Assembly (NCBI GenBank): GCA_016713875.1
Contig: JADJOI010000003.1
Location: 3,576,069-3,640,068 of the forward strand
DNA length: 64,000 bases
Reading direction: 5' to 3'
Origin: Flavobacteriales bacterium
GTDB taxonomy: Bacteria; Bacteroidota; Bacteroidia; Flavobacteriales_F; PHOS-HE28
The notes under the pieces were generated by a model. The model was given only the letters and a program-made list of their open reading frames with translations, made no database searches and was not told the DNA's origin. Below, one piece after another: positions 17,984 to 59,603 of this stretch; positions within the stretch are counted from its first letter, which is position 1, and each line of letters starts with the position of its first letter. The position numbers and the translations under genes are program-made.

Positions 17984-18011
17984 AGCCGCCTGTCTGCGCA
18001 GGCCGTGCCGC

Positions 18012-19509: not shown

Positions 19510-19512
19510 GGC

Positions 19513-20933: not shown

Positions 20934-20981
20934 TGAGGCTTAATGCCATGCTAAGCGGGCTTTAAGGAGGCGGTTCCAGCT

Positions 20982-22113: not shown

Positions 22114-22128
22114 ACCGATCAGCCGGCT

Positions 22129-22928: not shown

Positions 22929-22934
22929 TCGATC

Positions 22935-24113
22935 GTAGGTCGGGGGTCTTGATCCCCACCATTGAGAAGGAGTGCTTGCGGCCTCTCGCTCACATGCGGG
23001 AACCGCACCATGGACCTGTTGGAGCCCTTCGAGGAACTGGAAGACCCGCGCATCGACCGCACCAAGCGGTATCCGCTGAGCTCGCTCTTGCTGCTGATCC
23101 TCTCGGCGGTGCTCAGCGATTGCCAGGGAGCCAGCGAGATCGCCCACTTCGGCCTGGCCAAGCTCGATTGGTTCAAACGCCACGGCCACTTCACGGATGA
23201 CAAGGTGCCATCGCACGACACGATCGGCGACCTGCTCCGGCGGCTCGATCCGGTGGCCTTCGCCGCCTGCTTCGCCCGGTGGACGGCCCGCGTGTGCCAG
23301 ATCACCGAAGGAGAGCTGGTGGCCAGTGATGGCAAGCGCTTGCGCGGCAGCTACGATCGGCTCGATGGCAAGGAGGCCATCCACATGATCAGCGCATGGA
23401 GCCACCAGAACCAGCTTGTGCTGGGGCAACTGCAAAGTGGATGGCAAGACCAACGAGATCACGGCCATCCCCGCATTGCTTGAAATGCTGGAGTTGAAGG
23501 GTGGTGAGCATCGATGCCATGGGTTGCCAGAAAAAGATCGCAGCACTGATCCAGGAGCGCAAGGCCGACTATCTCCTGGGCTTGAAGGAGAACCAGCCCG
23601 AACTGCTCGAAGAGGTCGCCCTTGCCTTCGTCCATCACAAGACCCACAGCCACGACCAGCAGGACACCAAAGGCCATGGTCGCGTGGAAACACGCGGATG
23701 CGCGAAGTGATCGACGATCCTACGTGCTCTCCGATGCGGCGCATTGGACCGGCTTGCGTTCACTGGTGCGCGTCCAGGCCATCACCCACCGGGTGATCGA
23801 GAGCAAGACCACCAGCCAGACCCGCTACTACCTCTCCAGCCTCAAGACCGATGCACGCAGGTTCAACGCCCTGATACGCGCCCATTGGGGCATCGAGAAC
23901 TCGCTGCACTGGGTCTTGGACGTCACCTTCCAGGAAGACGCCTCCCGCGTGCGGAAGGACCACGCCGATCGCAATCTGGCCACCATCCGCCGATGGGCCC
24001 TCAACCTCTGTAAACTGGACCGGACACCCAAGCTCACCATGAACCTCAAGCGCAAGCAGGCCTCCTACTCAGATGCCTTCCGTGAGCAACTCCTAAGGAT
24101 TAAGACCCGATAG
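22935..24113 (+). mobile_element. ISAs1-family insertion sequence (degraded)
   Basis: Imperfect terminal inverted repeats tcgggggtcttgatcccc (left) and ggattaagacccga (right). The internal transposase matches ISAs1/H-repeat-associated proteins. Confidence 0.7.
23010..24113 (+). pseudogene. ISAs1-family transposase, at least 3 frameshifts
   Basis: MDLLEPFEELEDPRIDRTKRYPLSSLLLLILSAVL...DGKRLRGSYD; then DGKTNEITAIPALLEMLELKG, MGCQKKIAALIQERKADYLLGLKENQPEL, and THRVIESKTTSQTRYYLSSL...HWGIENSLHWVLDVTFQED in different frames. Confidence 0.75.
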
Positions 24114-24129
24114 CCCTGACAGAGCACCA

Positions 24130-24716
24130 TCACACTATCGGATGCCATCGTCGCGGCGGACATTGTGCAGCAAGCTTTCCGCGCGATCGGGCAAGAGGAT
24201 AGCGCCTACACGTACTTGCATCGCATGGTATGGCTGCAGGACAGCCTGACCAACGTGAACAACTTGTACAAGGTGCAAGGCATGACCTTCGAGCAGGAAC
24301 TGAAGGACCACGAGGATGCCAAATTGAAAGCCGAAGCCTCCGCCGCCCGCTCCCGCAACATCCAGTTCGGCATCATCGCCCTCATCGTTCTCACACTGGG
24401 CATCTTCCTGCTGGTGTTCAGCCGTACGGCGGTCGTTGGCGCCAAGGCCATCAAGAACCTCTCGCCGATCGCGCTGCTGCTCTTCTTCGAGTTCATCAAT
24501 CTGCTGCTGCATCCGTTCTTGGACCGCATCACCAACCACTCACCGATCCTGATGCTGTTGTGCATGGCCGCGATCGCAGGGGCTGCTGATCCCGCTGCAC
24601 CACCGCATGGAGAAGCTCATCACCAATATGCTTGTATCGAAGAACAACCGCGTACGATTGGAGGCGGCGAGAAGGACGATCGAGGAGTTGGAGTCCAACA
24701 CCGACAGCGCCCAATG
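24130..24716 (+). pseudogene. TPR/transmembrane paralog A: 5'-truncated by the IS, 1 frameshift
   Basis: Reading frame is open from the IS right end. Contains the conserved TM and C-terminal module (RSRNIQFGIIALIV...FFEFINLLLHPFLDRITNHSPILMLLCMAAIAG). An extra G near 24585 shifts the ...LLIPLHHRMEKLITNMLVSKNNRVRLEAARRTIEELESNTDSAQ* tail. Confidence 0.65.
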
Positions 24717-24720
24717 AGGA

Positions 24721-26146
24721 AGTACATCACGATCGCCCGGCCGGTCGTCTTTGTGTTAGCAAGCATGGTTCACCTCGTGCTATCTGCGCAGCAGTTCGTC
24801 AGTCAACCGCGGTTCGATTCCTTGCGAACGCGCTATGACTTGTCACGGCCGCCGCAAGAGCGTTATTGGATCACCAGCAACCATCGGTGGGCATGTTGGA
24901 ACAGAGGGCTCAAGCAGGAGGCCCGACAGTCTGCCAAAGAGGAGCTTGAACTTGCCGAGCAACTGCAGGTGGACACTTTGCTCGCCAACGCCTACGACGA
25001 CCTGAGCGGAAGCTTTATCGGTTCATCGGAAAGCGCGCTGCAATTGAAGTACTCGCAGAAGGCGCTGGAACATGCGAATGCTTCGGGAAGCCATGACTAT
25101 ATCGGCACCGTGCAGAAGGGCTTTGCCTCCATCTATAAGCCGTTGGGAGACTTTCCCCTGGCCAGACTACTTGAGGAAGGCGTTGACCAACCTGCGCCGA
25201 CCATCGCAGATCAATCGGGCGTGTTGTCATATGAGCGATTGTTTCAGGTTGATGGGGCAAGCCGATTCCGCGCTGTACTGGGCGCAGCGGTCGAACATTG
25301 TGACCAACCCGGCTGAGGATACGTACGGCTACGCGCTCGTATTATGTGCCTTGGGCGGCCTATGCGGCCAAGGGCGAACGCGACTTGGCCGAGGTGCATT
25401 TCAAGCGTTGCATCGAGGTGGCTGAGTCGTTCAAGGTGATGGTTCCGCTCTATGCAGCGCTGGTTGCCCGTGGGCGCATGAAGCTGGAGGCGGAGGACGT
25501 GGAGGGAGCGATCGCCGATGGCCGACGGGGCTTGAAGGTGAGCCAGGACGGGGACGATCTGGTCGGTATGATCGAGTCAACAGAGCTGCTGCGTGATGCC
25601 TTCAAACGCATTGGTCGCCTCGATAGCGCATTCCACTTCTTCACATTTAAAGCGGCCTATGACGACAGTTTGAGGAACGTGACCAACCTGAACAAGCTAC
25701 AGAACATGGCCTTCGAGCAGGAGCTGAAGGATCGAGAGGATGCGAAGCTGAAGGCCGAAGCCGCAGAGGCCCGCTCCCGCAACATCCAGTTCGGCATCAT
25801 CGCCCTCATCGTGATCACGCTGGGCATCTTCCTGCTGGTGTTCAGCCGAACGGCGGTGGGGGCGCCAAGGCCATCAAGAACCCTCTCGCTCATCGCGCTG
25901 CTGCTCTTCTTCGAGTTCATCAATCTGCTGCTGCATCCGTTCTTGGACCGCATCACCAACCACTCGCCGATCCTCATGCTGCTTTGCATGGCCGCCATAG
26001 CAGGGTTGTTGATCCCACTGCACCACCGCATGGAGAAGCTCATCACCAACATGCTTGTATCGAAGAACAACCGCGTACGATTGGAAGCGGCGCGGCGGAC
26101 GCATCGAAGAGTTGGAAGCAAGGCCAACAGACACGGGCCCGAGATG
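24721..26146 (+). pseudogene. TPR/transmembrane paralog B, at least 3 frameshifts
   Basis: Signal peptide MRKYITIARPVVFVLASMVHLVLSAQ. The TPR-like body is spread over 3 frames. Conserved TM/C-terminal module at 25700-26100. The tail RRT(I)EELE is shifted. Confidence 0.6.
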
Positions 26147-26185
26147 ATGGGAATGATGCGTAACACACCTCAAGGACGATCGATC

Positions 26186-27917
26186 ATGAAGGTGGTCCGG
26201 CTGCTCTGTGCGGTTGTCATCATGAGCACCATCGGAGATCTGCGTGCACAGCCTTTCGATACGATTCAAACGCGGTTCAGCACGCTGCCGTTGGAAGAAC
26301 TGATCGTACGGGAAAAAAGCGACCACCGACGCGCGTGAGAAGGTCGCGCTGCTCTCCAGGCTCGTAATGAAGTACCTGTACCTCAACAAGCAGGACGAAT
26401 GCACGAGCACCTCGATCCGCACGCTTGAGGTGGCCGAACCCACCAGGAACGACACGCTTATCGGCAGGGCGCATCTGGCCATCGGGTCGGCATTCACCAT
26501 CGCCAATGACGTGAACGGGGCATTGAAGCATTACAACTTATCGCTCGACCACTACACAAGTGCTGGTGACAGTATTTGGATGGGCGCGGTGTGCAAGGAG
26601 CTCGCCGTGCTCTATCAACGCGTGGGCGACAATGATGGCTCCATGCGCTACATGCGCAAAGCGCTGGCTTTGGGCATGCCCCCCGGGATCCGTTCGCGAG
26701 GGCTGTCAACAATAGCCCGGGTCTTCATGGACCGTGGCGAGCTCGATTCCGCGCTGTACTACACCAAGCAAGTGGAAATGGTCGGTTCACCAGGCGTGGA
26801 CCCATGGACCTACACGTATTCGAACGGTGCGCTTGCCGCAGTGTATGCGGCCCGGAAAGAGAACCATCTGGCCGAGCTGCATTTCAAGCGCACGATCGCC
26901 GCTGCTGATTCGTTCCAACTACCGCTTCCCCTCGTTCAGTTCGCTTCGGAGTATGCTTCCTTGCTCATGGAACAGGGCCGCACAGCGGAGGCGCAATCCA
27001 TCGCGCAATTGGCTTTCCGAGCCGCAGAAGGGGTGAGCAACCCAGGGATGGCGCAGAGAGCTGCCGAAGCCCTGGCCGATGCATACCATGCGAACGGCAG
27101 GACGGATAGCGCGTTCCATTACGCGAAGCTCTGCATCTCATTTCGCGACAGCGTTATCTCCACGCAGAACCGCAGCCAGCTCCAGAGCCAGCTCTTCGCG
27201 CAGCAGCTCAAGGACATGGAGGATGCCAAATTGCGCGCGGAGGAAGTCGCGACCCGCTCCCGCAACATCCAGTTCGGCATCATCGCCCTCATCGTTATCA
27301 CGCTGGGCATCTTCCTGCTGGTGTTCAGCCGCACGGCGGTGGTCGGCGCCAAGGCGATCAAGAACCTTTCGCTCATCGCGCTGCTGCTCTTCTTTGAGTT
27401 CATCAATCTACTGGTGCATCCTGTACTGGGTGAACTCACGCACCACTCGCCGTTGCTGATGCTGCTGTGCATGGCCGCCATCGCCGCGTTGCTCATCCCG
27501 CTGCACCACCGCATGGAGAAGCTCATCACCAACATGCTCGTGAGCAAGAACAACCGGGTGCGGTTGGAGGCGGCGCGGCGGACGATCGAGGAGTTGGAGG
27601 GGGCGGGGAAGGGGAGGCCGATGCGGCGGGTTGAACACGGACTGGTCGTGCTCCACTGTCGAGCAATCAGGGATCACAGTTCCCGTTCGAACTGCGGAGC
27701 GAAATGCTCCTCTCAACGGGCTGCGATCGCATCCAACCGTTCGAGAATGCGGCGCAGCAGCACCACGGTCTCCTCACTGGCCGCTGAGGAAGGACTGGTT
27801 TGTTCAGGTTCGCGCCCATGCTTCAAGGCTTCGCGCTGTGCCAGGATCCGGTCGCGGAACTCGTGCGCGTCGATGATGCCGATCAACCGCATGTCGTGCG
27901 CTTGTCCCTGGCTCTGA
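26186..27917 (+). pseudogene. TPR/transmembrane paralog C, frameshift near 26320 and unresolved 3' end
   Basis: Signal peptide MKVVRLLCAVVIMSTIGDLRAQ in one frame; MKYLYLNKQDE...TPR body...RSRNIQFGIIALIVITLGIFLLVF...LHHRMEKLITNMLVSKNNRVRLEAARRTIEELE in the next. The ORF then overruns into the opposite-strand gene, which is likely spurious. Confidence 0.6.
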
Positions 27918-28252
27918 CCGGCCGTCTCGAACTTCAGGATGCTCAGGTTGAAGTGCTTGAGCAGAGGACCCTCCACGAAAGTCACATCCTGGATGTTCTC
28001 CAACGGGATCGTCTTCTCGATCTGGAACAGGATGCCCTTGCGGTAGCGCAGCAGCTTCGGCCCCAACTCGCATTCCAACTTATCGAAGTAATGGCGGGCC
28101 CACCATTGACCCACACCAAGCACCCAGATCACGGCCAGCGGAATGCACACGACCGTTGCAGCAAGGAATAGGGCGACCTGAAGCACCAGGTACGGTCGTA
28201 TGAGCGGGTTGAAGCGCGCGCGTAGCGGTTCGGGCGGGGTAACGTCGGTCAT
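27713..28252 (-). CDS. bacterial PH domain (bPH_2/YdbS-like) membrane protein
   Basis: Two TM helices then GILFQIEKTIPLENIQDVTFVEGPLLKHFNLSILKFETAG. Only the last 179 aa of the 341-aa track ORF are credible. Confidence 0.65.
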   Translation of the reverse strand: MTDVTPPEPLRARFNPLIRPYLVLQVALFLAATVVCIPLAVIWVLGVGQWWARHYFDKLECELGPKLLRYRKGILFQIEKTIPLENIQDVTFVEGPLLKHFNLSILKFETAGQSQGQAHDMRLIGIIDAHEFRDRILAQREALKHGREPEQTSPSSAASEETVVLLRRILERLDAIAAR

Positions 28253-28339
28253 GCGCCTTTTCGTGTTTCTGTGGTGGCCAATGCCGAATGTACCGGTTCC
28301 CACCAGTCGGGTCGCTTGTTGTCCGCTAGCCTTGCACTG

Positions 28340-28440
28340 AAGAGGATCGTTGAAAGCGGCGAGAAGGACGATCGAGGAGTTGGAGTCCACCTCCGCCACG
28401 GCTTCTGCGGATGAAAGGGCGGGAAAGGGTGAGGCGCCGT
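28340..28440 (+). repeat. orphan 3' end of the TPR/TM paralog family (…AARRTIEELESTSATASADERAGKGEAP*)
   Basis: Shares aagaaggacgatcgaggagttggag with the 3' ends at 24670, 26095 and 27580. No gene body upstream. Confidence 0.6.
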
Positions 28441-28479
28441 AGATCCGGTCAGTGGTACTATGCCCGTGCCGTTGGTGGT

Positions 28480-30308
28480 TCAGCGACAGCTCGAGGATCG
28501 ATCCGCCCTCAGCGGGTTCGTGAGGCTGCCTGCACCAGATGCGTCTTGAAGCAGCAGGATCGCATGCGCCGATCCCGGTTCGTCCGTGTCGATGGGATCT
28601 GCTTCGGAAACGTTGTACCACGTCGAGTGGACCGTCGAAGCACTTCCGGGAAGGACACCAGCGGCCATCCGATCGCGTGCGCGCTGGATGGTTTCCTCGC
28701 GCCATGCGCCTGCCGGGTGCCACGGTGTGATCGTGCAAGCGGCGATCCCATCGTGCTTCATGGCGAAAGGCAATGCGCGTTCACCGGTCGGTTCAAACGA
28801 TGGTTCGCTATCAAGCACGATGTCAGGAACGACACCCTCCAGTTGCACACTGGTCCCCGATGGTCGGAAGAAGAGGCCCACGGTGATCTTGGCGGAACCA
28901 GTGGAGGTCACTGCGCCATCAGCATCAGCGATCGGCGCGAGGGGCACCATGTTCTGGATGGTGCCTTTGCCGTAGGTCCGAGGTCCACCCAGCACCACGG
29001 CGCGCTTGTGGTCCTGCAAGGCGGCCGCGAAGAACTCAGAGGCCGATGCGCTGTGCTCGTTCACGAGCACGACGAGCGGTCCTCGATAGCGGGCCCGCTC
29101 CGGGGTCGTCGAAAGCACGCGCACGGTGCCGTCACGGGGCAAGGCGCTGCGCGACGGGTCCCGCATCGAGAAAGAGGCCGAGGATGTGGATGGTCTCGCT
29201 CATGCTGCCGCCCTGGTTGTCGCGCAGGTCGATGGCGAGGCCGCCGATCCCTGCGTACAGGAGGGTGTCGAGCAGTTCCGCGACGTCCTGGGAACAGCGC
29301 GGCGCGCTCCCGCCGGACAGGTCGGTATAGAAGCGCGGCAAGGTGATCACACCGATGGGTGGACCGGCACCACGCACCACACATGCCCGCGCCTGGCCCG
29401 CCGCAGGGTGGATGAGCGCGCGTTCCAGGACCACGGTCCGTTGTTCGCCGTCCGCCTGGCGAAGGATCAGCTCCAGCGTGCTTCCGGCCGGGCCACGAAG
29501 CAGGTCCACCGTTGCGTCGATGGAAAGACCAGGCACCGGCACGGGTGCGGCGTTCAGCTCGCGCACCGTCAGCAGCTCATCGCCCATGGCCAATGCACCG
29601 CCCAACGCCGCGGGGCCGCCGGGTTCCATCGACCCGATGCGGATGCGGCCATCGGTGCTCGACAGCGTGACACCGATGCCGACGAAGCTCTGCGTCATCG
29701 CATGGTCGAAGCCCGTACGCTCTTCCGCCGACAGGTAGGTGCTTTGTGCGTCATGCACGTTCGCCAGCGTGCCAAGGAAAAGGTCCATGCGTTCTTCACG
29801 TCCGCGCTCGATCCGGGCGCGCAGGTCGTTCTGTGCGCGGGCCCGCACAAGGGCCCTGGCCTCATCTGCGGAACCGCCCAGGGCAGCACGGACCTCCGAG
29901 CTGCGTTCGGCGAGTCGGCAATGCCAGCGTCGGTCCGGTTCTGCGTGCGCAGTGGGCGTGCCGTCCCCATCGACCAGTGCCAGGGCGCAACAGACCGGCG
30001 TACATCAGGCTGTCGCAGCGATGCACGAACGATGGCACACCGTGCGCCAGTTGGTCATCGATGTGCAAGCGATCGCTGGCCAGAATTTCGCGCTCTGGCG
30101 CTGAGAGATAGAGGGTGTCCGGGTCAAGGGTGCGCAGGTAGCTGTCGAAGACGTCCGCTGAGAACCGGTCGTCGATGGCTCGTGGCGCGAAGTGCCGCTC
30201 CCGCAGGATCGTCATCAGCTCGGCGATGCGCGCGCTGTCGGCGTCCAGTTGCGCGGGGCAGAAAGTGCAGCAGGACAGGCAAAGAGCGAATCCCGTGATG
30301 CGTAGCAT
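28480..30308 (-). pseudogene. S41 family C-terminal processing peptidase, at least 2 frameshifts
   Basis: N-terminus ELMTILRERHFAPRAIDDRFSADVFDSYLRTLDPDTLYL. PDZ region; GVITLPRFY...DLRDNQGGS; LVVLVNEHSASASEFFAAALQDHKRAVVLGGPRTYGKGTIQ. Spread over three frames. Confidence 0.75.
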
Positions 30309-30419
30309 GATCCGAAGGTATCGGCAGTGGCATGCGTGGGATCCAAGGAACTGTTAATGGCCGGTTGCTGTTAGTGGTAACGGAGCGGGTTGCTGCATGA
30401 AGGCGAAAGTCAGCGCGCA

Positions 30420-30490
30420 TCTCTCCAAAGGCTGGAGTCGGTAAGAAGGACGATCGAGGAGTTGGAAGGTGGGCCGCGCAAGGACTAACC
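30420..30490 (+). repeat. second orphan 3' end of the TPR/TM paralog family (…RRTIEELEGGPRKD*)
   Basis: Same 24-bp core gtaagaaggacgatcgaggagttgga. Isolated. Confidence 0.55.
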
Positions 30491-30543
30491 CCATATCGCG
30501 TCCCAAAGCCCCTCGATGATATCGGGGTCTTGAGCCTCCGTTG

Positions 30544-31416
30544 TCAACGGACCATGACGCGCTCAACGAACCATTCACCTCGACCCGAACTGAACTGCAA
30601 GACATACGCGCCTGGGCGATCGAACGTAATGACCTGTTCGCCACGGACGGTCTGCGCGCTCAATTGCCGTCCGGTCGCGTCGAAGACGGTCATGGAGCCT
30701 TCAACCCCAGTAATGAAGACCGGCTCTCCGCGGGAGGCCAGGGAAGGTCTGATCCACGATCCGGCCTCTTCACGCTCTCCGATCCCGACCCCCAGCGTGC
30801 ATTGCGCGACCAATGGGTTCTGCCAGGTGATATCCGTATCCTCATAACACCGAAGACCCGCGAAGACCTCGCCATCGCAGACGCCATAGAGCCAGGCGAA
30901 CGGCGCGATCAGATTTCCGAGCCGCTCCGTGACCGTACCTCCGAAACCGAAGCTGGACCACTGCCTGGACTCCACGCTCACTTCCAGGCTGCGCAGCGAA
31001 AGTCCATCCACCCAGATCAGGCTCGTATCCAGCACGGTCCAATCGAGTGTATCCTGCTGACCGATCTGCACCACCGGAGTGGACCACACATCACCGATGG
31101 CCGCGTTCCATCGAAAGACCAGATGATGCTGGCCTGTGCTTGATCCGAAGTAGAACAGGGAGTCCTGCGACTCCGAGAGGAACTGGGCAAGTTGATGACA
31201 GCCGAACCAACCCTCGTTGATCTGGAGCTTCTTGCATATTCGGCCCTCGATGAGCGTGTCGCCCGTCACCTCGATCACCATCAGGGCGGTATCTGGACCG
31301 CCCCAATGAGCCTGCTTGTAGGTCCATTTCGCACCGGTCGGAGCGAACGTCGTCTGCGCATGCATCGAGGTCGCGACAAGAGCGGCGCTGAGCGTGAGGA
31401 TCTGCCCGTTGGTCAT
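30544..31416 (-). CDS. T9SS-sorted secreted protein (paralog of 12078-13526)
   Basis: Signal peptide MTNGQILTLSAALVATSMHAQ. FAPTGAKWTY and CDGE..LRCY motifs shared with 12078-13526. C-terminal ...GAYVLQFSSGRGEWFVERVMVR. Confidence 0.6.
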   Translation of the reverse strand: MTNGQILTLSAALVATSMHAQTTFAPTGAKWTYKQAHWGGPDTALMVIEVTGDTLIEGRICKKLQINEGWFGCHQLAQFLSESQDSLFYFGSSTGQHHLVFRWNAAIGDVWSTPVVQIGQQDTLDWTVLDTSLIWVDGLSLRSLEVSVESRQWSSFGFGGTVTERLGNLIAPFAWLYGVCDGEVFAGLRCYEDTDITWQNPLVAQCTLGVGIGEREEAGSWIRPSLASRGEPVFITGVEGSMTVFDATGRQLSAQTVRGEQVITFDRPGAYVLQFSSGRGEWFVERVMVR

Positions 31417-31494
31417 GGCATGGTGAAGATAGACCAACTGGACGCGTTTCCAGGGCGAAGTGCTGCCCGGGATCAGGCCGGACCCCCCCACCCC

Positions 31495-31620
31495 CTCCAA
31501 CGCCACCTTCGCCCCATGCACAGCCTGCCCCGCGCATTTGGCGGGGTTCTTCACGACCTGTCCCGCCTTAGCGGGATCCAGCACGCTGATCCGCAAGGTG
31601 CCTGACACATCGCGGACGTT
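31495..31620 (-). repeat. mfd 3'-end-like fragment F5 (orphan, hairpin-containing)
   Basis: Minus-strand translation ...GTLRISVLDPAKAGQVVKNPAKCAGQAVHGAKVALEGVGG is homologous to the Mfd C-terminus (KFKVYEKAGTLRVSVQD...). Contains the stems ccccgcgcatttggcgggg and tcccgcc..gcggga. Confidence 0.7.
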
Positions 31621-31630
31621 CGGGAGCCTT

Positions 31631-32002
31631 TAGAGCAGATGCAGCGTGAGTTCGTTCTTGAGCTTCTTGAAGTGCTTGTCTTCCGTGACGAGCGGTACTC
31701 CGGAGCCGGATGGCGGTCGCCGCGATCAGCGCATCGGCGAGTTTCATTCGATAACGAGCACGGAAGTCCATGGCTGCTGACTTGATCCCGTCGTCGAGGT
31801 CCACGATCTTGATGAATGCCAGGTCGGCGGTCACTTTCGCACGCTCATGGGCCGTGTAGCCATGAAAGCCGAGTATTTCGATCTCGGTGACGAAGGAGAC
31901 GTGGATGATCGTGTCTTCGAGCAGCGGCGTTGTGCGCGCATCGCCGTCCCAGTGGTGGATCAATACGTTGGTGTCGACCAGCAACGACTTAGCGGTCATC
32001 AC
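31631..32002 (-). pseudogene. vapC: PIN-domain toxin VapC, 1 frameshift near 31690
   Basis: MMTAKSLLVDTNVLIHH...ADALIAATAIRL, then a frame switch to PLVTEDKHFKKLKNELTLHLL*. Confidence 0.65.
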
Positions 32003-32213
32003 GCATGGTCTTCAAATACTCCTTCATACGCTCCGCTATGCCGGGGATCATCCCGGAGGAGCGCTTGGCATCGTAGCCTTTCTGCTTCTGCCGTTTGGAT
32101 GTTGTTCTCGGGGTCGTCTTTCGTGCGTATACGGCCTGCGGGTCGCTCACCACGGTAAGCGCCTTCTCCGAAGTCTGCTTGGGTTTCTTTGGTCGCTTTG
32201 AGCTGGTGGCCAT
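31989..32213 (-). CDS. vapB: VapB-type antitoxin (small basic protein overlapping vapC start)
   Basis: 74 aa. Ends MIPGIAERMKEYLKTMRDDR with a 14-bp overlap of the vapC start codon region. Confidence 0.45.
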   Translation of the reverse strand: MATSSKRPKKPKQTSEKALTVVSDPQAVYARKTTPRTTSKRQKQKGYDAKRSSGMIPGIAERMKEYLKTMRDDR

Positions 32214-32261
32214 GGATCGAAGATAGGTCAGGCCACCTCCTTCACCCCCACCACACTCTCC

Positions 32262-32395
32262 ATTGCCGCCTTCGCCCCTTCGATGTTCTTCACGACCTGT
32301 CCCGCCTCGGCGGGATCCTGCACGCTGATCAGCATCGTTCCCGCCTTCTCGTACACCTTGAATCGGCATGGTTTGCCCTCGGCAAGTTCTCAAGT
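32262..32395 (-). repeat. mfd 3'-end-like fragment F4
   Basis: Encodes ...RFKVYEKAGTMLISVQDPAEAGQVVKNIEGAKAAMESVV...* ; ~85% nt identity to F3 over the core. Confidence 0.7.
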
Positions 32396-32413
32396 GTGAA
32401 TGACCGGCAGGCC

Positions 32414-32977
32414 TCACCGGCGGATCTCGAATCCAGTCTCCGTCGATACAGTGTCAACCATTGGTGCAAGTCGGATCCGATCCTTACGGGTAAAGACCGT
32501 GTCAACTCCCCATTCACCCAACTCACCTGTATTCATCGAAACAACGAGTGTGTCGTTAGTCTCCACGAGGAACGCGCTGCGTTCATAGACGCCGCCATGG
32601 TCGTCGTTCTCGATGAGGGAGAACCAATGGGGCTGCTTCGAGCATCCATCGAAGAGGGTGAGCGTCAGATACCGCACCGCATGGTCGCACTCGGGAGAGC
32701 TGTTCAGCACGAGGAGTCCGATGCGAGATTCTCTTATGATGACCTTGCCTATGACCCACGCAGAATCACTTTCCGTCATTCTCCTGTCGTGGAGGGCATG
32801 GAACCCTTCCGCATCCAGGCGGATCCAACTCGGGTCGATCGCCTTGTCAACGTAATCCAGATCGAAGTGGCGTTCCGATATCTCGGGAACGAGCAAGAGC
32901 ACTTCGCAAAGGTCCTGTGGGGATGAGGGTAGGCGAGAAGCACAAGGTTGACCGAGCACGAGCGGCACACAGGTCAA
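32414..32977 (-). CDS. hypothetical protein (cargo between F3 and F4)
   Basis: Open frame with non-biased composition (…SAWVIGKVIIRESRIGLLVLNSSPECDHAVRYLTLTLFDG…). No family recognised. Start uncertain. Confidence 0.35.
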   Translation of the reverse strand: MTCVPLVLGQPCASRLPSSPQDLCEVLLLVPEISERHFDLDYVDKAIDPSWIRLDAEGFHALHDRRMTESDSAWVIGKVIIRESRIGLLVLNSSPECDHAVRYLTLTLFDGCSKQPHWFSLIENDDHGGVYERSAFLVETNDTLVVSMNTGELGEWGVDTVFTRKDRIRLAPMVDTVSTETGFEIRR

Positions 32978-33079
32978 TTAGGACAGGTAGGGCTTCATGC
33001 CAACTGGTTCAAGTATTGGTTGAACGATCTACGGCCCAAGTTCTTATGCTGCAACGTTCACCTCAACAACCGATTCCAT

Positions 33080-33270
33080 CGCCGCCTTCGCCCCTTCGAT
33101 GTTCTTCACGACCTGTCCCGCCTCGGCGGGATCCTGCACACTGATCCGCGACGTCCCCGCATTCTCGTACACCTTGAACCGTCGTGGTTGCGCCTGCGCG
33201 GCGCGCAGCAGCGCGTTGAAGCCAATGGCCTCAAAGAAGCCATACTTCCGGTCGGCAAAGGCTTCAGGCC
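33080..33270 (-). repeat. mfd 3'-end-like fragment F3 (longest)
   Basis: Encodes AFADRKYGFFEAIGFNALLRAARAQPRRFKVYENAGTSRISVQDPAEAGQVVKNIEGAKAAMESVVEVNVAA*. Aligns with Mfd ...GDGFNAVLRAVQAQPGKFKVYEKAGTLRVSVQDTKTLHEAKEVLGAVLVVPA*. Confidence 0.75.
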
Positions 33271-33563
33271 GCCTTGGCTGTCGCCAGTGGGATCTCCGCC
33301 AACTCCTTGCCTTTTCCTTTGAGCTCTTCTTCGATATCGAAATCGTCCTGTAACCCCAGCCAGAACTTGGCCGAATTACCGAAGTACTTGGAGAGGCGCA
33401 GGGCGGTATCCGCTGTGACGCGACGCTCGCCCTTGATGATCTGAGATACGCGCGTTTGCGGGATACTGATGTCCTTGGCCAGGCGGTAGGCCGTGATGCC
33501 CATGGGTACGAGGAACTCCTCTTCGAGCACAGTGCCGGGGTGGATGTTCGGGAGCTTCTTCAT
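33264..33563 (-). CDS. higA: HigA family antitoxin (XRE HTH)
   Basis: MKKLPNIHPGTVLEEEFLVPMGITAYRLAKDISIPQTRVSQIIKGERRVTADTALRLSKYFGNSAKFWLGLQ. Confidence 0.75.
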   Translation of the reverse strand: MKKLPNIHPGTVLEEEFLVPMGITAYRLAKDISIPQTRVSQIIKGERRVTADTALRLSKYFGNSAKFWLGLQDDFDIEEELKGKGKELAEIPLATAKAA

Positions 33564-33574
33564 GGGTGCTGATC

Positions 33575-33865
33575 TTAATGGTAGTCGATGATCTCCACTT
33601 CGTAGGCGTTGCCGCTTTGCCACTTGAAAATGATGCGCCACTGGTCGTTGATGCGCACGCTATAGAAGTCCTTCAGGCGGCCAGCCAGTTTCTCCAAGCG
33701 GTTGGCGGGTGGGACGCGCAGATCGGCGATGTCTTGGGCGTTGTTGATCATCCGGAGCTTTCTTCTGGCCGTTTCCTGGATCGTCGAAGGCAGTTTCCGC
33801 TGTGGATCACCGTTCCAGATCCCTTCTGTCACCTTCGATCCGAACGACCTGATCATGTCCGGCAA
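33575..33865 (-). CDS. higB: HigB-like toxin (RelE/ParE superfamily)
   Basis: ...RLKDFYSVRINDQWRIIFKWQSGNAYEVEIIDYH is a HigB C-terminal signature. Sits upstream of higA as usual for higBA. Confidence 0.7.
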   Translation of the reverse strand: MPDMIRSFGSKVTEGIWNGDPQRKLPSTIQETARRKLRMINNAQDIADLRVPPANRLEKLAGRLKDFYSVRINDQWRIIFKWQSGNAYEVEIIDYH

Positions 33866-33904
33866 ATATACTATCGCGTGGCGTCACTAGCAACTGCCAC
33901 CCCA

Positions 33905-33950
33905 CCACCCCACCACTCCCTCCATCGCCGCCTTCGCCGCGTGGATGATC
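33905..33950 (-). repeat. mfd 3'-end-like fragment F2 (short; tail only)
   Basis: Encodes ...IIHAAKAAMEGVVG..., matching the AAKAAMESVVG tails of F3 and F4. Confidence 0.5.
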
Positions 33951-33968
33951 TGACCGAAGTAAAGTGGC

Positions 33969-35005
33969 CTAGGTCTTCTTTCGTGTTGCGGACCTCCCCA
34001 TGGTAAGCGCTTTCCTTGCGCTCAACGGTGTTACGACCTTCTTGCCAGTACGAGCCTCCAATTCCAAGCGCGCCACCTTGGCCACGTTCCCACCTTGTCG
34101 CGCCACTTCTTTGTTGTCCTCGAAGGTCTCGGGCTCGGTGGCTTGTGAAATGTCCTTCGCGGATGCCTCGGCAAGCATGTTCAGGATCAGTTCCGTGTTG
34201 GTCATATTGTCGCGGAGGTTCTCCTTCTTCAGGCCCTTGAGCACCTTGTACTCCTTCGTGCTGTTCCCGCTCCACGCCTTGGTGATTATGTCCGTGAGCG
34301 TCGCGAAGTGCATGCCTTCCTTCATCCCGCGTTTCCTCCATTCATCGGTCAGCTCCTTGCGGATCTCGATGCTCTGTAGGGAGGTTCAAAGCACATCGTT
34401 CCGGCGGCGATGTATTGAAGTAGAGTATCAGTGATGCTTGCTCCCGTTCGACCATACGGCGTTGCTCCTAGGCCGGATACTTCGTTCCAGTATCCTTGCC
34501 TCGGAGCGCCTTGTCTGGTCATACGATAGCTGTGCACGCCATCCGTTCGATGTGCTTTGAACCTCCCTGGCCGCTGGTTGATCCAACTCTCCGAGTAGCC
34601 CAGCCGCAGGTATTGTTCAAGCGCACGGTCGATGGTGATCTCCGGATCCGCCATTTCATCCATCCGCTCCGATGCCACTTGTGCCAGCCATAGTTTGAAC
34701 GGCTCGGCCTTGGGTGAAGGGATGGATTGGATCAGCCGGAAGAGCTGCTCGGTGTCGGCCACATCGGTGAGGCGGAGCTTGCCGTCGTCGGCGGGCAATT
34801 TCAACTGTCCGATTTTATCGGACAGTTGGCTGCCTTCCTTCACTAGCTTGGTCTTCAGGTCGTTCCAGTACTTGCGAGGGCGCTCGTTACCGGTGAGGGC
34901 CGCTATCACATCGATGATGGAGAAGAACCACTTCTCCTGCTCCCCGTCCCACACGGTGCGAACCTGCTTCTCCTCGAAGACCTTGATGGCGTTCTTGTCG
35001 GTCAT
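33969..35005 (-). pseudogene. DinD-like / Bro-N domain DNA-damage-inducible protein, at least 2 frameshifts
   Basis: N-terminal part KVFEEKQVRTVWDGEQEKWFFSIIDVIAALTGNERPRKYWNDLKTKL (Bro-N/DinD-like). C-terminal part HFATLTDIITKAWSGNSTKEYKVLKGLKKENLRDNMTNTELILNMLAEA aligns with E. coli DinD residues ~150-200 but lies in a separate ORF. Confidence 0.55.
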
Positions 35006-53527: not shown

Positions 53528-54052
53528 TCACTTCTTGCTGTCCTTCTTGGGGGCGGCTTTCTTGGCCGGGGCCTTCTTGGCGGGCGCCGCCTTCTTGGCC
53601 GGAGCGGCCTTCTTGGCGGGGGCGGCCTTCTTGGCTGCGGCCTTGGTCGCCTTGGGGGCGGCCTCCTTCTTCGCCGGGGCCTCGGCCTTCACGGCCTTGG
53701 GGGCGGGGGCGGTGCTCTTGCTGGCGTCGAACTTCTCGCCTTTGCCGAGGATGGCCTCGATCCACAGTTCGGTGATGGCCTGGCGGTGGCCGTTCATCTT
53801 CTGGTAGCCCTTGCGGCGCTTCTTCTTGAACACCAGCACGGTGTCGCCCTTGCTGTGCGCGAGCACCTTGGCGGCCACACGGGCGCCCTCCACGGTGGGG
53901 GTGCCCACGCTGACGGTGGAGCCATTGCTCACCAGCAGCACCTGGTCCAGTTCCACGTGCTTGCCGGCCTCGGCTTCGAGGCGGTGCACCTTCAGCTTCT
54001 GGCCGCCCTGCACCTTGTATTGCTGGCCGAGGATGTTGACGATGGCGTACAT
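53528..54052 (-). CDS. rplU: 50S ribosomal protein L21 with Lys/Ala-rich C-terminal extension
   Basis: MYAIVNILGQQYKV... L21 core (~105 aa) followed by ~70 aa of APAKKAAPAKKAAPAKK encoded by 15-bp tandem repeats. Confidence 0.85.
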   Translation of the reverse strand: MYAIVNILGQQYKVQGGQKLKVHRLEAEAGKHVELDQVLLVSNGSTVSVGTPTVEGARVAAKVLAHSKGDTVLVFKKKRRKGYQKMNGHRQAITELWIEAILGKGEKFDASKSTAPAPKAVKAEAPAKKEAAPKATKAAAKKAAPAKKAAPAKKAAPAKKAPAKKAAPKKDSKK

Positions 54053-54149
54053 GTTCTCCGAAATGGGCTGCGAAAGTAGTGTGAAATCCGGATCTGGACG
54101 AAGGGGTAGAGGTCTTGTGGGGATAAGAGACTGGGAGACAGGGGGGTTT

Positions 54150-54215
54150 GTGGCGAGTAGGGAGTGGCGAGTGGCGAGTGGCGAGTAGCGAGTAGGGAGT
54201 GGTGAGGGATGCGGC
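54150..54215 (+). repeat. 21-bp GC-rich tandem repeat (short downstream block)
   Basis: gtggcgagtagggagtggcgagtggcgagtggcgagtagcgagtagggagtgg. Confidence 0.8.
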
Positions 54216-54216
54216 C

Positions 54217-54636
54217 TCAACGGAGAAAGTAGGGGGTGGAGAGGTTGAACCAGAGTCCAAGCAGGGCCATCGCACCTGGGATATTGCGCCAGCCGGTGGT
54301 CTTGGTCTTGATGTAGGTCCGCAGGAGCCGGGCAGTCTGGTCCTGTAGGGCCATCATGCGGTCGATCTGATCCGGCGGGAAGTACTTCCTGCGGCGGGCA
54401 AGATGGAGCATGGAGCAAACTTCATTGCAGGAGCCCTTGGCGATCCAGAGGTAGCGGAGCTGATGGGCCTTCGTAGGCATTTCGTGGCCTTCTGCGATGT
54501 TGTTGCAGATGGACAGGGATGCACGGAATAACTGGTCCCTGAAGCCCCAGTTCTTGTTCTCGGATAGCGCGATGTCCACGGCCTCGTTCAAGTCCATGGC
54601 CCGCTGCCAGGCGATCGACTCTTCAAAGCTCTTCAT
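54217..54636 (-). CDS. four-helix-bundle protein (PF05635 / TIGR02436; Avd-like, formerly '23S rRNA intervening-sequence protein')
   Basis: MKSFEESIAWQRAMDLNEAVDIALSENKNWGFRDQLFRASLSICNNIAEG...AKGSCNEVCSMLHLARR matches the TIGR02436 pattern. Confidence 0.7.
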   Translation of the reverse strand: MKSFEESIAWQRAMDLNEAVDIALSENKNWGFRDQLFRASLSICNNIAEGHEMPTKAHQLRYLWIAKGSCNEVCSMLHLARRRKYFPPDQIDRMMALQDQTARLLRTYIKTKTTGWRNIPGAMALLGLWFNLSTPYFLR

Positions 54637-54639
54637 GGG

Positions 54640-55360
54640 TGGGTGGGGATGGGTCGGGTTACGAGTAGCGAGTACCGAGTGGCGAGTAGCGAGTAGCGAG
54701 TACCGAGTGGCGAGTAGTGAGTACCGAGTGGCGAGTAGTGAGTACCGAGTGGCGAGTAGTGAGTACCGAGTGGCGAGTAGTGAGTACCGAGTGGCGAGTA
54801 GCGAGTAGCGAGTGGCGAGTAGTGAGTACCGAGTGGCGAGTAGTGAGTACCGAGTGGCGAGTAGTGAGTACCGAGTGGCGAGTAGTGAGTACCGAGTGGC
54901 GAGTAGTGAGTACCGAGTGGCGAGTAGCGAGTACCGGTGGCGAGTAGTGAGTGCCGAGTGGCGAGTAGTGAGTACCGAGTGGCGAGAAGCGAGTACCGAG
55001 TGGCGAGTAGTGAGTAGCGAGTGGCGAGTAGTGAGTACCGAGTGGCGAGTAGTGAGTACCGAGTGGCGAGTAGTGAGTACCGAGTGGCGAGTAGTGAGTA
55101 CCGAGTGGCGAGTAGTGAGTACCGAGTGGCGAGTAGCGAGTACCGAGTGGCGAGTAGTGAGTACCGAGTGGCGAGTAGTGAGTACCGGTGGCGAGTAGCG
55201 AGTACCGAGTGGCGAGTAGTGAGTACCGAGTGGCGAGTAGTGAGTACCGAGTGGCGAGTAGTGAGTACCGAGTGGCGAGTAGCGAGTACCGAGTGGCGAG
55301 TAGTGAGTACCGAGTGGCGAGTAGCGAGTACCGAGTGGCGAGTACCGAGTGGGTTGCTGG
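54640..55360 (+). repeat. 21-bp tandem satellite, ~34 copies (unit tggcgagtagtgagtaccgag with gcg/gtg variants)
   Basis: Perfectly phased 21-bp periodicity over ~720 bp. The track ORFs (TRYSLLATRYSLL.., SSEYRVASSEYRV..) are translations of the repeat. Confidence 0.9.
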
Positions 55361-55404
55361 ATGCACCTCAACGCCAAGGTAAAGGGCCTCCTTGAAATGC
55401 GATC

Positions 55405-55445
55405 GCGAGTGACGATGGCGGACTCGCCACGCGTCACTCGCGACT
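55405..55445 (-). terminator. stem-loop downstream of metK (11-bp perfect inverted repeat cgcgagtgacg…cgtcactcgcg)
   Basis: Located ~25 bp after the metK stop on the minus strand. The loop contains ggactcgccac, related to the GTGGCGAGT repeat core. Confidence 0.5.
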
Positions 55446-55466
55446 CGATACTTGGGTCAGGGAAGC

Positions 55467-56726
55467 TTACAGCTTGAACGCCTTTTTCACCGCGGCCACG
55501 GCATTGAGCTCCTCCCAGGGGAACAGCTTCACCTTCACGGTGGCTTTCTGACCGGCGTTGCTGAAGGTCTTGGTCACCTCCTTGCACTCGCGGCCCATGT
55601 GCCCGTAAGCGGCGGTCTCGCTGTAGATGGGGGTGCGGAGCTTGAAGCGCTGCTCGATGAAGTACGGGCGCATGTCGAACTCCTTCAGGCCGCCCACCAC
55701 CTGGGCGATCCGGCCGTCGCTCATCTTCACCTTGCTGGTGCCGTAGGTGTTCACGTAGAAGCCCACGGGCCTGGCCACGCCGATGGCGTAGGCCACCTGC
55801 ACCAGGCATTCGTCGCACACGCCGGCCGCCACCAGGTGCTTGGCCACGTGGCGCGCCGCGTAGGCCGCGCTGCGATCCACCTTGCTGGGGTCCTTGCCGC
55901 TGAAGGCACCGCCGCCGTGCGCGCCCTTGCCGCCGTAGGTGTCCACGATGATCTTGCGGCCGGTGAGGCCGGTGTCGCCGTGCGGGCCGCCGATCACGAA
56001 CTTGCCGGTGGGGTTGATGTGGTAGGCGATGTCCTTGCCGAAGAGGGCCTGCACCCGCTTGGGCAGCTTCTTCATTACGCGGGGGATCAGCACCTCGATC
56101 ACGTCCTTCTTGATGCGCGCCAGCATCTTCGCCTCGCTGTCGAAGTCGTCATGCTGGGTGCTCACCACGATGGCGTCGATGCGCTTGGGCGTGTGGTCGT
56201 CGTTGTACTCGATGGTCACCTGGCTCTTGGCGTCGGGGCGCAGGTAGGGCATCTTGCTGTTCTTCTCACGGCGGATGGCGGCGAGCTCGCGGAGCAGCAG
56301 GTGGCTGAGCTCGAGCGGCAGCGGCATGAACGTATCTGTGTCGCGGCAGGCGTAGCCGAACATCATGCCCTGGTCGCCGGCGCCCTGTTCCTCGGGCTTC
56401 TTGCGCTCCACGCCCTGGTTGATGTCGGGGCTCTGCTCGTGGATGGCGCTCAGCACACCGCAGCTGTGCGCCTCGAACATGTACTCGCTCTTGGTGTAAC
56501 CGATACGCTCGATCACCTCGCGGGCGATCTGCTGCACATCGAGGTAGGCGTTGCTCTTCACCTCGCCGGCCAGCACCACCTGTCCGGTGGTCACCAGGGT
56601 TTCGCAGGCCACCTTGCTCTGCGGGTCGAACGCGAGGAAGTGGTCGATGAGGGCATCGCTGATCTGGTCGGCGACCTTGTCGGGGTGGCCTTCGCTGACG
56701 GATTCGGAGGTGAAGAGGTAGGGCAT
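55467..56726 (-). CDS. metK: methionine adenosyltransferase
   Basis: [25 protein letters not shown]..., [19 protein letters not shown]. Confidence 0.95.
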
Positions 56727-58580: not shown

Positions 58581-59603
58581 ATGCCCACCGGCCTTGTGAT
58601 GCGCTCCACCGGCAGCCGCTACCTGGTGCGTGGCGACGACGGCACGCTGCACGAGTGCGTGGCCAAGGGCAACCTGCGGATCAAGGGGTGGAAGAGCACG
58701 AACCCGGTGGCGGTGGGCGATCGGGTGGACTTCAGCCCGCAGGAGGATGCGGACCACCCGGGCGCCATCACCGACCTGCACGACCGGCGCAACTACCTGG
58801 TGCGGCGCAGCGTGAACCTGAGCCACCACAAGCATGTGATCGCCGCCAATCTGGACCAGGCGCTGCTGATCGTGACGGTGGCGCGCCCGCGCACCTCCAC
58901 GGGCTTCATCGACCGCTTCCTGGTGACCGCCGAGGCTTACCAGGTGCCGGTGGTGCTGGTGGTGAACAAGGTGGACGACCTGGCCGACGACGAGATGGAG
59001 GACCTGGCGGAGCTGGTGGACACCTACCAGCAGGCGGGCTATCGGGTGCTGATGACCTCGGCGCGGACCGGGGCCGGGGTGGACGATGTGCGGGAGCTGC
59101 TCGCCGGCCGGGTGACCTTGGTGGCCGGGCACAGCGGGGTGGGGAAGAGCACCCTCATCAACAGCATCGATCCGGCGCTCGACCTGCACACCGCCGTCAT
59201 CAGCGAGGCCAGTGAGAAGGGCCAGCACACCACCACCTACGCCGAGATGTTCGAGCTGGGAGTGGCGAGTGATGAATTGCGAGTGGCGAGTGATCAGCCG
59301 GCTGACACTCGCCGCTCGTCACTCGCCACTCAGGCCGTGATCCCACCGACCTTCATCATCGACACCCCCGGCATCAAGGGCTTCGGGCTGGTGGACCTGG
59401 AGGCCGAGGACATCGGCGATCAGTTCCCCGAGATCTTCCGGTTGAAGGGCGGTTGCCGCTTCAACAACTGCCTGCACAAGGACGAACCCGGCTGTGCGGT
59501 GCGCGCCGCGGTGGAGGCTGGAGAGCTGGCCGGAAGCCGCTACAGCAGCTACCGCGACATGCTCGAGGGCATCGATGAGGAGAGTCCTTACCGACTGGAT
59601 TGA
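58581..59603 (+). CDS. rsgA: ribosome small-subunit-dependent GTPase A, carrying a 26-aa in-frame palindromic insertion
   Basis: OB domain; G motifs (VVNKVD, GHSGVGKSTLIN, DTPG); C-terminal zinc-finger CLHKDEPGC. Insertion GVASDELRVASDQPADTRRSSLATQAV lies between HTTT and IIDTPG. Confidence 0.85.
   Translation: MPTGLVMRSTGSRYLVRGDDGTLHECVAKGNLRIKGWKSTNPVAVGDRVDFSPQEDADHPGAITDLHDRRNYLVRRSVNLSHHKHVIAANLDQALLIVTVARPRTSTGFIDRFLVTAEAYQVPVVLVVNKVDDLADDEMEDLAELVDTYQQAGYRVLMTSARTGAGVDDVRELLAGRVTLVAGHSGVGKSTLINSIDPALDLHTAVISEASEKGQHTTTYAEMFELGVASDELRVASDQPADTRRSSLATQAVIPPTFIIDTPGIKGFGLVDLEAEDIGDQFPEIFRLKGGCRFNNCLHKDEPGCAVRAAVEAGELAGSRYSSYRDMLEGIDEESPYRLD
59259..59332 (+). repeat. 74-bp imperfect palindromic (MITE/REP-like) element inside rsgA
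   Basis: gagtggcgagtgatgaattgcgagtggcgagtgatcagc | gctgacactcgccgctcgtcactcgccactc. The arms are reverse complements. Core GTGGCGAGT is shared with the 21-bp satellite. Confidence 0.8.

Follow-up and report, generated by a model that had tools for sequence, protein, structure and literature searches.

An unusual arrangement of short repeats raises the question of why a small gene between metK and rplU in the genome of a Flavobacteriales bacterium is bracketed by tandem arrays of a 7-nucleotide (nt) unit, one of which runs to about 98 copies. The gene encodes a four-helix-bundle (4HB) protein of the PF05635/TIGR02436 family and lies on the minus strand of a 64,000-nt stretch of DNA (hereafter the window; GenBank assembly GCA_016713875.1, contig JADJOI010000003.1, positions 3,576,069 to 3,640,068), to which the coordinates below refer. 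The answer we favor, with somewhat better than even confidence, is that the locus (54150-55455, minus strand) is a single cassette in which a gene for an "rRNA intervening-sequence protein" is bracketed by heptamer arms that pair as the arms of an rRNA intervening sequence (IVS) do, and in which the array in the leader of the gene has expanded. The large array would then have arisen in this lineage through growth of the 3'-arm repeat inside the 5' leader.

Read along the minus strand, the order is metK, long array, 4HB gene, short array, rplU and rpmA. Between the metK stop codon and rplU the cassette consists of four GAGTnnn heptamers, a hairpin, a promoter-like box, about 98 ACTCnnn heptamers, a 24-nt C-rich stretch, an open reading frame (ORF) of 139 codons recognized by its PF05635/TIGR02436 profile matches (54217-54636, minus strand) and eight further ACTCnnn heptamers. 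The four GAGTnnn units form the 5' arm (55422-55455, minus strand), which begins ~12 nt past the metK stop codon and was delimited by its complementarity to the arrays and by the presence of the same block at orthologous loci. The long array occupies the space between the promoter-like box and the start codon (54655-55352, minus strand, from Tandem Repeats Finder (TRF) and a parse of the units); TRF alone reported it as 54662-55344 (683 bp), with a period of 21, 32.6 copies, 95% matches, a score of 1226 and the consensus CGAGTGGCGAGTAGTGAGTAC. The 3' arm, which TRF placed at 54150-54206 (57 bp, period 7, 8.1 copies, minus strand), starts 10 nt past the ORF stop. A repeat search found the 5' arm to be 76-84% complementary to the ACTC arrays on either side of the gene, and the 5' and 3' arms pair as an inverted repeat of 31 nt at 84%. 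The initial annotation, made from the sequence alone, had described a satellite surrounding a 4HB gene with arrays upstream and downstream of it, and both points hold, the placement being right relative to the minus-strand gene.

The same annotation took the unit to be a perfectly phased 21-mer, and this has to be revised. The repeats are built from heptamers, ACTCnnn on the strand of the gene and NNCGAGT on the plus strand, and the main variants of the heptamer in the long array (ACTCGCC, 29 copies; ACTCGGT, 28; ACTCACT, 23; ACTCGCT, 11) are ordered into 21-bp and partly 63-bp blocks whose phasing is broken by 14- and 28-bp steps and, in the window copy, by two 1-nt deletions. The information content of the heptamer is 2 bits at each of the first four positions and 1.19, 1.10 and 1.09 bits at the last three, i.e., the core is invariant and the remainder variable. 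A 14-nt motif of the units, GGCGAGTRGYGAGT, occurs 43 times in the window, where 0.18 occurrences would be expected by chance. Long ORFs run through the array on both strands and are repeat artefacts, as had been proposed.

The long array is present in independent data. The identical 4HB protein sequence was found on 17 contigs, and in four independent long-read assemblies the array measures 688 nt (window), 690 nt (GCA_963853025), 690 nt (GCA_016717445) and 685 nt (GCA_016703685), with identical first and last units in all four and two assemblies identical throughout. Because these assemblies agree in length and ends, the long array is not an assembly artefact. The two 1-nt deletions are confined to the window and one other assembly, are missing from two other assemblies of the same species, and look like consensus errors. 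Collapse of the array, which the initial annotation had raised together with arbitrary variation, was seen in short-read assemblies only, where the array is reduced to 15 units (locus L005) or the contig ends inside it (L004, L006-L010). In one further assembly of the same species (GCA_016720105.1, L212:2695-2943), a garbled 250 nt that holds fragments of the gene start and homopolymer runs replaces ~1.1 kb comprising part of the array, the 4HB gene and the 3' arm; this is either a real deletion between two direct ACTC arrays or a misassembly.

The protein is a clear member of its family. Its 139 residues match PF05635 with an E-value of 1.4e-23 (83.6 bits, cut-off 33.8) and TIGR02436 with 5.4e-23 (81.3 bits, cut-off 24), and the motif GxxRxxxSxxxNxxE, which is conserved in the family (PMC3936711), is represented by R38, S42, N46 and E49, all invariant in the clade alignment, with Q35 at the leading glycine position. 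An AlphaFold monomer model built from 36 clade members (mean predicted local distance difference test score, pLDDT, 88.4) has helices at residues 8-24, 30-52, 56-83 and 88-116 plus an extra helix at 120-137. Foldseek aligned the model to Xcc0516 (2gsc) with a target-normalised template-modelling score (TM-score) of 0.91 and a root-mean-square deviation of 1.0-1.3, to BT_0352 (2rld) with 0.81-0.89, and to Avd (4dwl), a protein of diversity-generating retroelements (DGRs), with 0.82-0.87 at 12-15% identity; Avd in the DGR ribonucleoprotein 8ubb was matched as well. A phmmer search of the PDB returned 2gsc at 5.4e-7. The Avd-like fold proposed at the outset is borne out (2gsc TM-score 0.91, 4dwl 0.86, pLDDT 88), and the modeled structure places the protein with the stand-alone intervening-sequence proteins. 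Both 2gsc and 2rld contain five chains per PDB entry, and Xcc0516 has been described as a homopentamer (PMC4990558). Pairwise ratios of nonsynonymous to synonymous substitution (dN/dS) against orthologues are 0.04-0.24 (0.15 and 0.07 for the two closest orthologues), and therefore the gene is translated and under constraint; the protein is under purifying selection. Neither PADLOC nor PHROGs returned a match for the protein, so there is no assignment to a defense system or a phage. Residues 117-139 (window 54217-54285) form an additional conserved hydrophobic C-terminal helix with the pattern PGxxxLLxLW (pLDDT 62-69), which is specific to the Flavobacteriales clade and has no counterpart in Xcc0516, BT_0352 or Avd; it may serve in membrane association or in oligomerisation.

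Given the fold held in common with Avd and the collapse or breakage of short-read assemblies at the array, one could ask whether the locus is an assembly artefact, a degenerate DGR or an array related to clustered regularly interspaced short palindromic repeats (CRISPR). This is extremely unlikely. Besides the agreement of the four long assemblies, the synteny of metK, rplU and rpmA is conserved and no reverse transcriptase adjoins the gene; none of the 25 Pfam families among the matches listed for 50 window ORFs is a reverse transcriptase. No DGR template/variable repeat pair was found by a repeat search of 54000-55500, which returned only the heptamer arrays and a 14-nt chance pair. The likeness to Avd extends to both being small basic proteins with a four-helix bundle, whereas the window protein is closer to Xcc0516 and BT_0352 and sits in conserved housekeeping synteny. 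As to CRISPR, the 7-nt units follow one another head to tail with no spacers, no cas family is among the listed matches of the window ORFs, and PADLOC found nothing. The conclusion of the initial annotation that the locus is neither a DGR nor a CRISPR array therefore stands, on the conserved metK, rplU and rpmA neighbors, the lack of spacers and the 7-nt period.

Are such arrays peculiar to this genome or a property of the gene family? We compared 73 homologous loci from many phyla, most of them in metagenome-assembled genomes and with controls that are crude. At least one flanking array with a unit of 7-9 nt was found at 53 of the 73 genes; of 80 intergenic segments that served as controls on the same contigs, 13 carried arrays. 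Within 250 nt of 4HB genes, 14.5% of the flanking sequence is taken up by arrays of period 6-10, compared with 4.1% of distant ORF-free DNA; the latter replaced an earlier control, all DNA more than 700 nt away from 4HB genes (0.8%), that was too lenient. The two flanks match each other with a score of at least 14 at 50 of 73 loci (40 of them inverted), compared with 3 of 73 for the best of ten shuffles, and arms that enclose the ORF in relatives form 481 Watson-Crick pairs over 533 aligned positions. Array-flanked 4HB genes occur in Flavobacteriales, Bacteroidales, Cyanobacteriota, Chloroflexota, Gemmatimonadota, Alphaproteobacteria and other groups, with units that are lineage-specific, such as AACTTGAA in Brumimicrobium, GAGGTGGAA/CCTCCACCT in a Kiritimatiellia genome, CGGCTAA/TTAGCCT in a deltaproteobacterium and CGGTACG/TACCGCG in a Bacteroidales genome. 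The arms also have a polarity: the G-rich arm is the 5' arm in 29 of 30 inverted pairs at loci selected by protein and in 37 of 42 at loci selected by DNA. An inverted arrangement with a G-rich 5' arm looks identical from either strand, so the polarity belongs to the element itself rather than to the direction of the gene. Among phyla that rely on Shine-Dalgarno sequences, the 5' units look like such motifs (AGGAG, GAGG), and the 3' units look like the complement (CCTCC).

Finished plasmids of cultured bacteria were examined to exclude artefacts of metagenome-assembled genomes. At all eight loci on such plasmids, which span five phyla (two Nostoc plasmids, Anabaena 90, Calothrix, Picosynechococcus, Gemmatirosa, Azospirillum and Riemerella), a purine-rich array of 7-8-nt units lies upstream of the gene and its complement downstream. 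The initial annotation had considered that 4HB genes elsewhere might never be associated with repeats; the opposite was found. The Nostoc plasmids pNsp_c (L225:1141-1645) and pC052_D (L226:1148-1567) carry different cassettes in neighboring slots of one operon, with the units GGGAAAA and TCAGGAG and proteins that are ~35% identical (as estimated from the translations rather than computed). The insertion point of each cassette falls exactly at the junction of a stop codon with the start codon that follows, and the corresponding slot of the other plasmid is empty. These slots are a precise presence/absence polymorphism of array, ORF and array, and no clear target-site duplication was seen at the Nostoc junctions. 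Two other cassettes are located inside cas operons, between cas6 and cas4 on Anabaena sp. 90 pANA02 (L227:829-1671) and between cas10 and cmr3 on a plasmid of Picosynechococcus PCC 7003 (L232:1147-1582). The 23S_rRNA_IVP/PF05635 domain has been listed as CRISPR-associated (PMC3936711, PMC10910872), and cassettes within cas operons may account for that association with no functional link.

Orthologous loci show how the arms have changed together with the gene. A scan for relatives of the protein, limited to one genome per species, gave 80 loci, and a cassette at the 3' end of metK was found in at least 15 related Flavobacteriales species, usually with rplU and rpmA next to it (L011-L014, L015-L019, L021, L022, L024, L027, L028, L030, L038 and L220). 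Every one of these cassettes follows the same plan: the metK stop codon, three to five GAGTnnn units, often the same hairpin, 0-44 ACTCnnn units, the ORF, 4-32 ACTCnnn units and the rplU promoter region. In some sublineages the unit has changed on both sides together, to GAGAGAC/GTCTCTC in L015-L017 and to GTTAGTC/GACTAAC in L028. None of the loci compared has a longer array than the 98 units of the window; close relatives L220, L013 and L011 have 4-11 units, and therefore the expansion is lineage-specific. Relatives that lack the cassette were located with MetK homologues as anchors: L223 and L224 have a 90-nt metK-rplU spacer with zero heptamers, L221 has a 115-nt spacer with only a mini hairpin of 2+2 units, and in L222 the cassette is absent. 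The repeats therefore come and go with the gene. The three cassette-free lineages are nested among occupied ones in a neighbor-joining tree of MetK without support values, and this suggests at least three losses of the cassette.

The notion of a genome-specific repeat family that merely surrounds the gene was not sustained by these comparisons: the repeats are arms of the gene's own cassette, flank genes of this family in many phyla and are absent where the gene is absent. The same comparisons bear on the possibility that the big array is a neutral product of slippage with no role and that 4HB genes tend to land in or beside heptamer repeats, which are common. Heptanucleotide repeats are reported to be the most abundant long class of simple sequence repeats in many bacterial genomes and are credited to polymerase slippage (PMC4679880); arrays were present in 13 of the 80 control segments; orthologues have anywhere between 0 and 98 copies and show no visible effect of the difference; and the 95% identity of the units indicates recent expansion. 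We nevertheless consider neutral slippage rather unlikely, since it does not predict the complementarity of the arms or the G-rich 5' arm, and since the empty metK-rplU sites lack repeats while arrays accompany every one of the finished-plasmid genes, with units that differ at neighboring slots of one operon.

The sequence between metK and the ORF offers hints about transcription. The 5' arm and the first ACTC units form a strong hairpin in a terminator-like position after metK (55400-55447, minus strand, by RNA folding). The fold of the minus strand of 55330-55470 has a free energy of -58.1 kcal/mol (z = -4.29), with none of 200 shuffles equally stable, and the hairpin sequence ccatcgtcACTCgcgatcgcatttca is conserved in L011, L013, L014 and L022; we infer that the metK-proximal arm doubles as the metK terminator hairpin. 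Next comes TACCTTGG (55374-55381, minus strand), a 5/6 match to the Bacteroidetes -7 motif TAnnTTTG; the interval from metK to the ORF has no other box of this kind. In the window 745 nt separate the box from the downstream ATG, whereas L027 has an identical TACCTTGG 35 nt ahead of its ATG, and similar boxes precede the start codon by 27-38 nt in 15 clade cassettes. If TACCTTGG is a promoter, the array sits in the 5' leader of the gene. As sense RNA, the array is rich in C, poor in G (GC skew of ~0.5 on the opposite strand) and essentially unstructured, with -23 kcal/mol for 210 nt (z = +1.66) and an open centroid structure. A scan for sigma-70 promoters and intrinsic terminators around the locus was uninformative for a Bacteroidota genome.

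The position of the array between a promoter-like box and the ATG is also what would be expected if it were a contingency repeat of the phase- or rheostat-type, in which gain and loss of heptamers tune 4HB expression within a population. Heptamer number does vary among Coxiella strains (PMC4990558) and among the species compared here. A parallel is offered by the hmw adhesin genes of Haemophilus influenzae, whose expression is tuned by gain and loss of upstream heptamers; there, too, a 7-nt simple sequence repeat lies between promoter and start codon, in the 5' untranslated region, and is linked with RNase III (PMC12721329). The window array is, by contrast, ten-fold or more longer. Moreover, the four independent assemblies are within 5 nt of one another and have identical ends, so that no copy-number variation was detected within the species, with the caveat that consensus sequences can hide minor variants. 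A contingency function is very unlikely in our estimation.

Returning to the reading we favor, the closest known relative of the cassette is the ORF-bearing IVS of 23S rRNA in Leptospira, Coxiella burnetii and bacteria of the candidate phyla radiation (CPR). The Coxiella 23S IVS contains a PF05635 ORF and terminal inverted repeats that form a stem cut by RNase III, and upstream of the ORF it has tandem heptamers, two or three of them depending on the strain, with the RNase III site at the first repeat (PMC4990558). In CPR bacteria, the PF05635 domain is found within insertions at several sites in 16S and 23S rRNA, and ORF-bearing and ORF-less versions coexist (PMC11270868). The window element has in common with these a PF05635 ("S23p") ORF, complementary repeats that bracket it and tandem heptamers beside it. 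It differs in that it lies between metK and rplU rather than in an rRNA gene, that its arms are wholly arrays of heptamers, that one arm type is also found in the leader (~98 units) and that it has its own promoter-like box. Searches with Rfam and for tRNA genes detected no Rfam family, rRNA or tRNA in the 64-kb window, and Rfam searches of 20 related loci detected no rRNA, tRNA or known RNA family at the arrays. At one Bacteroidales cassette, an S-adenosylmethionine (SAM) riboswitch (L077:3704-3818, 71.9 bits) begins 77 nt past the 31-unit 3' array; the window cassette has metK as its neighbor, but the resemblance is probably coincidence.

By analogy with the ORF-containing 23S IVS, the two arms would pair in any transcript that crosses the element, such that the cassette is extruded as a stem-loop and the host RNA stays functional, and the paired stem may serve as a substrate for RNase III. 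Extrusion of this kind would explain why the elements are tolerated in rRNA helices, at operon junctions and, for copies without an ORF, in frame within rsgA. The 3'-arm repeat between the promoter-like box and the start codon would have grown by slipped-strand or unequal exchange, in blocks of 21 and 63 bp, to its ~98 units. The resulting leader of ~700 nt, C-rich and unstructured, would most likely lower expression of the 4HB protein, for example through loading of Rho. With regard to the predicted role of the protein itself, binding of the repeats is the obvious candidate.

Several observations weigh against this interpretation. Mismatches between the arms comprise 13 G-U and 14 A-C, and as there is no excess of G-U on the sense strand, complementarity could be maintained at the level of DNA. 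The 5' arm in the window has only four units, which are already satisfied by the local hairpin, and most of the 106 ACTC units are thus left with no partner. At ~10 of 28 loci with two-sided arrays, the arrays are direct and not inverted, and many Nitrospira-type homologues have no array detectable by TRF. The promoter boxes are pattern matches, and the MetK tree from which losses were read carries no support values. Finally, arrays are far more common than the gene: a scan of metagenome contigs for (GAGTNNN)5 gave 120 loci (L091-L210; 656 kb in total), and at just two of them a 4HB ORF adjoins the array. We dropped the idea that every heptamer array marks a cassette on account of that count.

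What, then, are the repeats that lack the gene? The 656 kb of array-selected contigs hold five 4HB ORFs, each with its own arrays. Many of the (GAGTNNN)5 loci are pairs of inverted arrays 10-100 nt apart, i.e., hairpins with no ORF, and ORFs enclosed by other array pairs on those contigs were not 4HB-like in a hidden Markov model search. Heptamer arrays with the GAGT core span metagenome contigs of 33% to 72% GC. The window has an ORF-less element of its own, a hairpin of the same heptamers (GAGTGGC... / ...ACTCGCC) that lies in frame in rsgA (59255-59335, plus strand; identified by folding and comparison with relatives) and folds with -61.7 kcal/mol (z = -5.61). The insert of 69 nt adds 23 residues just ahead of the DTPG motif of a protein in which the RsgA_GTPase domain was confirmed. 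It is present in the window and in the closest relative, L220, and absent from rsgA of L221 and L222, which indicates that an ORF-less copy entered this coding region recently. The initial annotation had already recognized a core common to the array, the rsgA insert and the metK hairpin, and all three are indeed built from the same heptamers.

An alternative function for the arrays is that they are the predicted binding sites of the cassette's own pentameric ring, which would contact a 4-nt core every 7-9 nt along single-stranded RNA or DNA, much as the trp RNA-binding attenuation protein (TRAP) wraps (G/U)AG repeats. Their purpose would be autoregulation, protection of RNA or mobilisation, and the protein would act in trans on the ORF-less hairpins. 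Units with a fixed 4-nt core and a spacer of 3-4 nt that varies are more in keeping with this proposal than with a simple stem. Even orthologues with saturated synonymous sites retain ACTC as the core while the spacers differ, and paralogous cassettes within one genome carry different units (L020 and L028; L023 and L037). The nearest solved relatives, 2gsc and 2rld, have five chains, Xcc0516 is the homopentamer noted above (PMC4990558), Avd forms part of the DGR reverse-transcriptase ribonucleoprotein whose structure has been solved (8ubb), and the array-selected contigs do contain their five 4HB ORFs. On the other hand, conservation of the core is equally explicable by GAGT/ACTC pairing or by recent homogenisation, most arrays have no 4HB gene nearby, and the unit is 7, 8 or 9 nt long depending on the lineage with no known matching change in the protein. 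We regard binding by a pentameric ring as a credible minority explanation for the arrays.

Intergenic heptanucleotide tandem repeats are also familiar from cyanobacteria, where they are called short tandemly repeated repetitive (STRR) sequences. Tandem repeats of TAACTGA occupy intergenic regions of Beggiatoaceae, and heptanucleotide tandem repeats are abundant in some bacteria (PMC4679880). Repeats of these types resemble the window arms in being tandem, intergenic, lineage-specific units of 7 nt that are abundant in Cyanobacteria and some Bacteroidetes and hard for short-read assembly. They differ in that they are described as direct and mostly upstream of start codons, and the searchable papers mention neither paired inverted arms nor a tie to PF05635. 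Likewise, no paper in our full-text literature search presented tandem-repeat arms as typical of the PF05635 family at large, the nearest being the heptamers of the Coxiella IVS (PMC4990558).

Another comparison is with the repetitive extragenic palindromic (REP) sequences and their REP-associated tyrosine transposases (RAYTs), also called REPIN systems, and with miniature inverted-repeat transposable elements (MITEs) and their transposons. In both, a gene is flanked by an inverted short repeat that is also found as hairpins without an ORF, and presence/absence polymorphism is seen. Inverted arms and presence/absence polymorphism were found for the cassettes as well (metK sites, Nostoc slots, and the rsgA insert in two of four relatives). 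Unlike those pairs, the cassette has no transposase or nuclease fold, and its arms are tandem arrays rather than a single palindrome; its sole ORF is the 4HB gene, with no transposase or recombinase. It is conceivable, and we offer it as a speculative and fairly improbable extension, that small mobile cassettes with inverted arrays of 7-9-mers make up a widespread class that has gone unrecognised, with PF05635 genes as their cargo. The 23S and 16S rRNA intervening sequences would be the members of this class that reside in rRNA, and the pentamer would recognise the core and aid processing or spread. The ORF-less heptamer hairpins that abound in Cyanobacteria, Bacteroidota and other phyla, STRR-type repeats and the surplus of heptanucleotide simple sequence repeats included, would be non-autonomous derivatives, as REPINs are to RAYTs.

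Other features of the window are of secondary interest. All three named neighbors of the cassette are on the minus strand (metK, 56750-55467; rplU, 54052-53528; rpmA, 53480-53211), and an ABC ATPase gene and serS are also neighbors in all assemblies and orthologues. Coding tandem repeats of 15, 18 and 36 nt (53542-53644) specify the Lys/Ala-rich C-terminal tail of ribosomal protein L21 and are present in the orthologous loci too. From ~17000 to 35000, the third-position GC of ORFs is 0.69-0.81, compared with 0.85-0.97 in the rest of the window, so that the segment may have been acquired. The Pfam matches listed for ORFs of the window as a whole include a DDE_Tnp_1-associated domain.

PF05635/TIGR02436, the parent family of DGR Avd, has a very large membership and was still called functionally uncharacterised in 2024 (PMC11270868). 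The sole genomic hallmark described for it has been residence in rRNA intervening sequences. That the gene is nearly always accompanied by two heptamer arms, at sites independent of rRNA, inside operons and in cas loci, gives the family a defined element architecture, and from this architecture follow hypotheses that can be tested: excision by RNase III, binding of the pentamer to the repeats, and mobility of the cassette as a unit. Since such arrays break short-read assemblies and create false ORFs, annotators should mask them. The cassettes may also explain part of the excess of heptanucleotide repeats that has long been noted in bacterial genomes.

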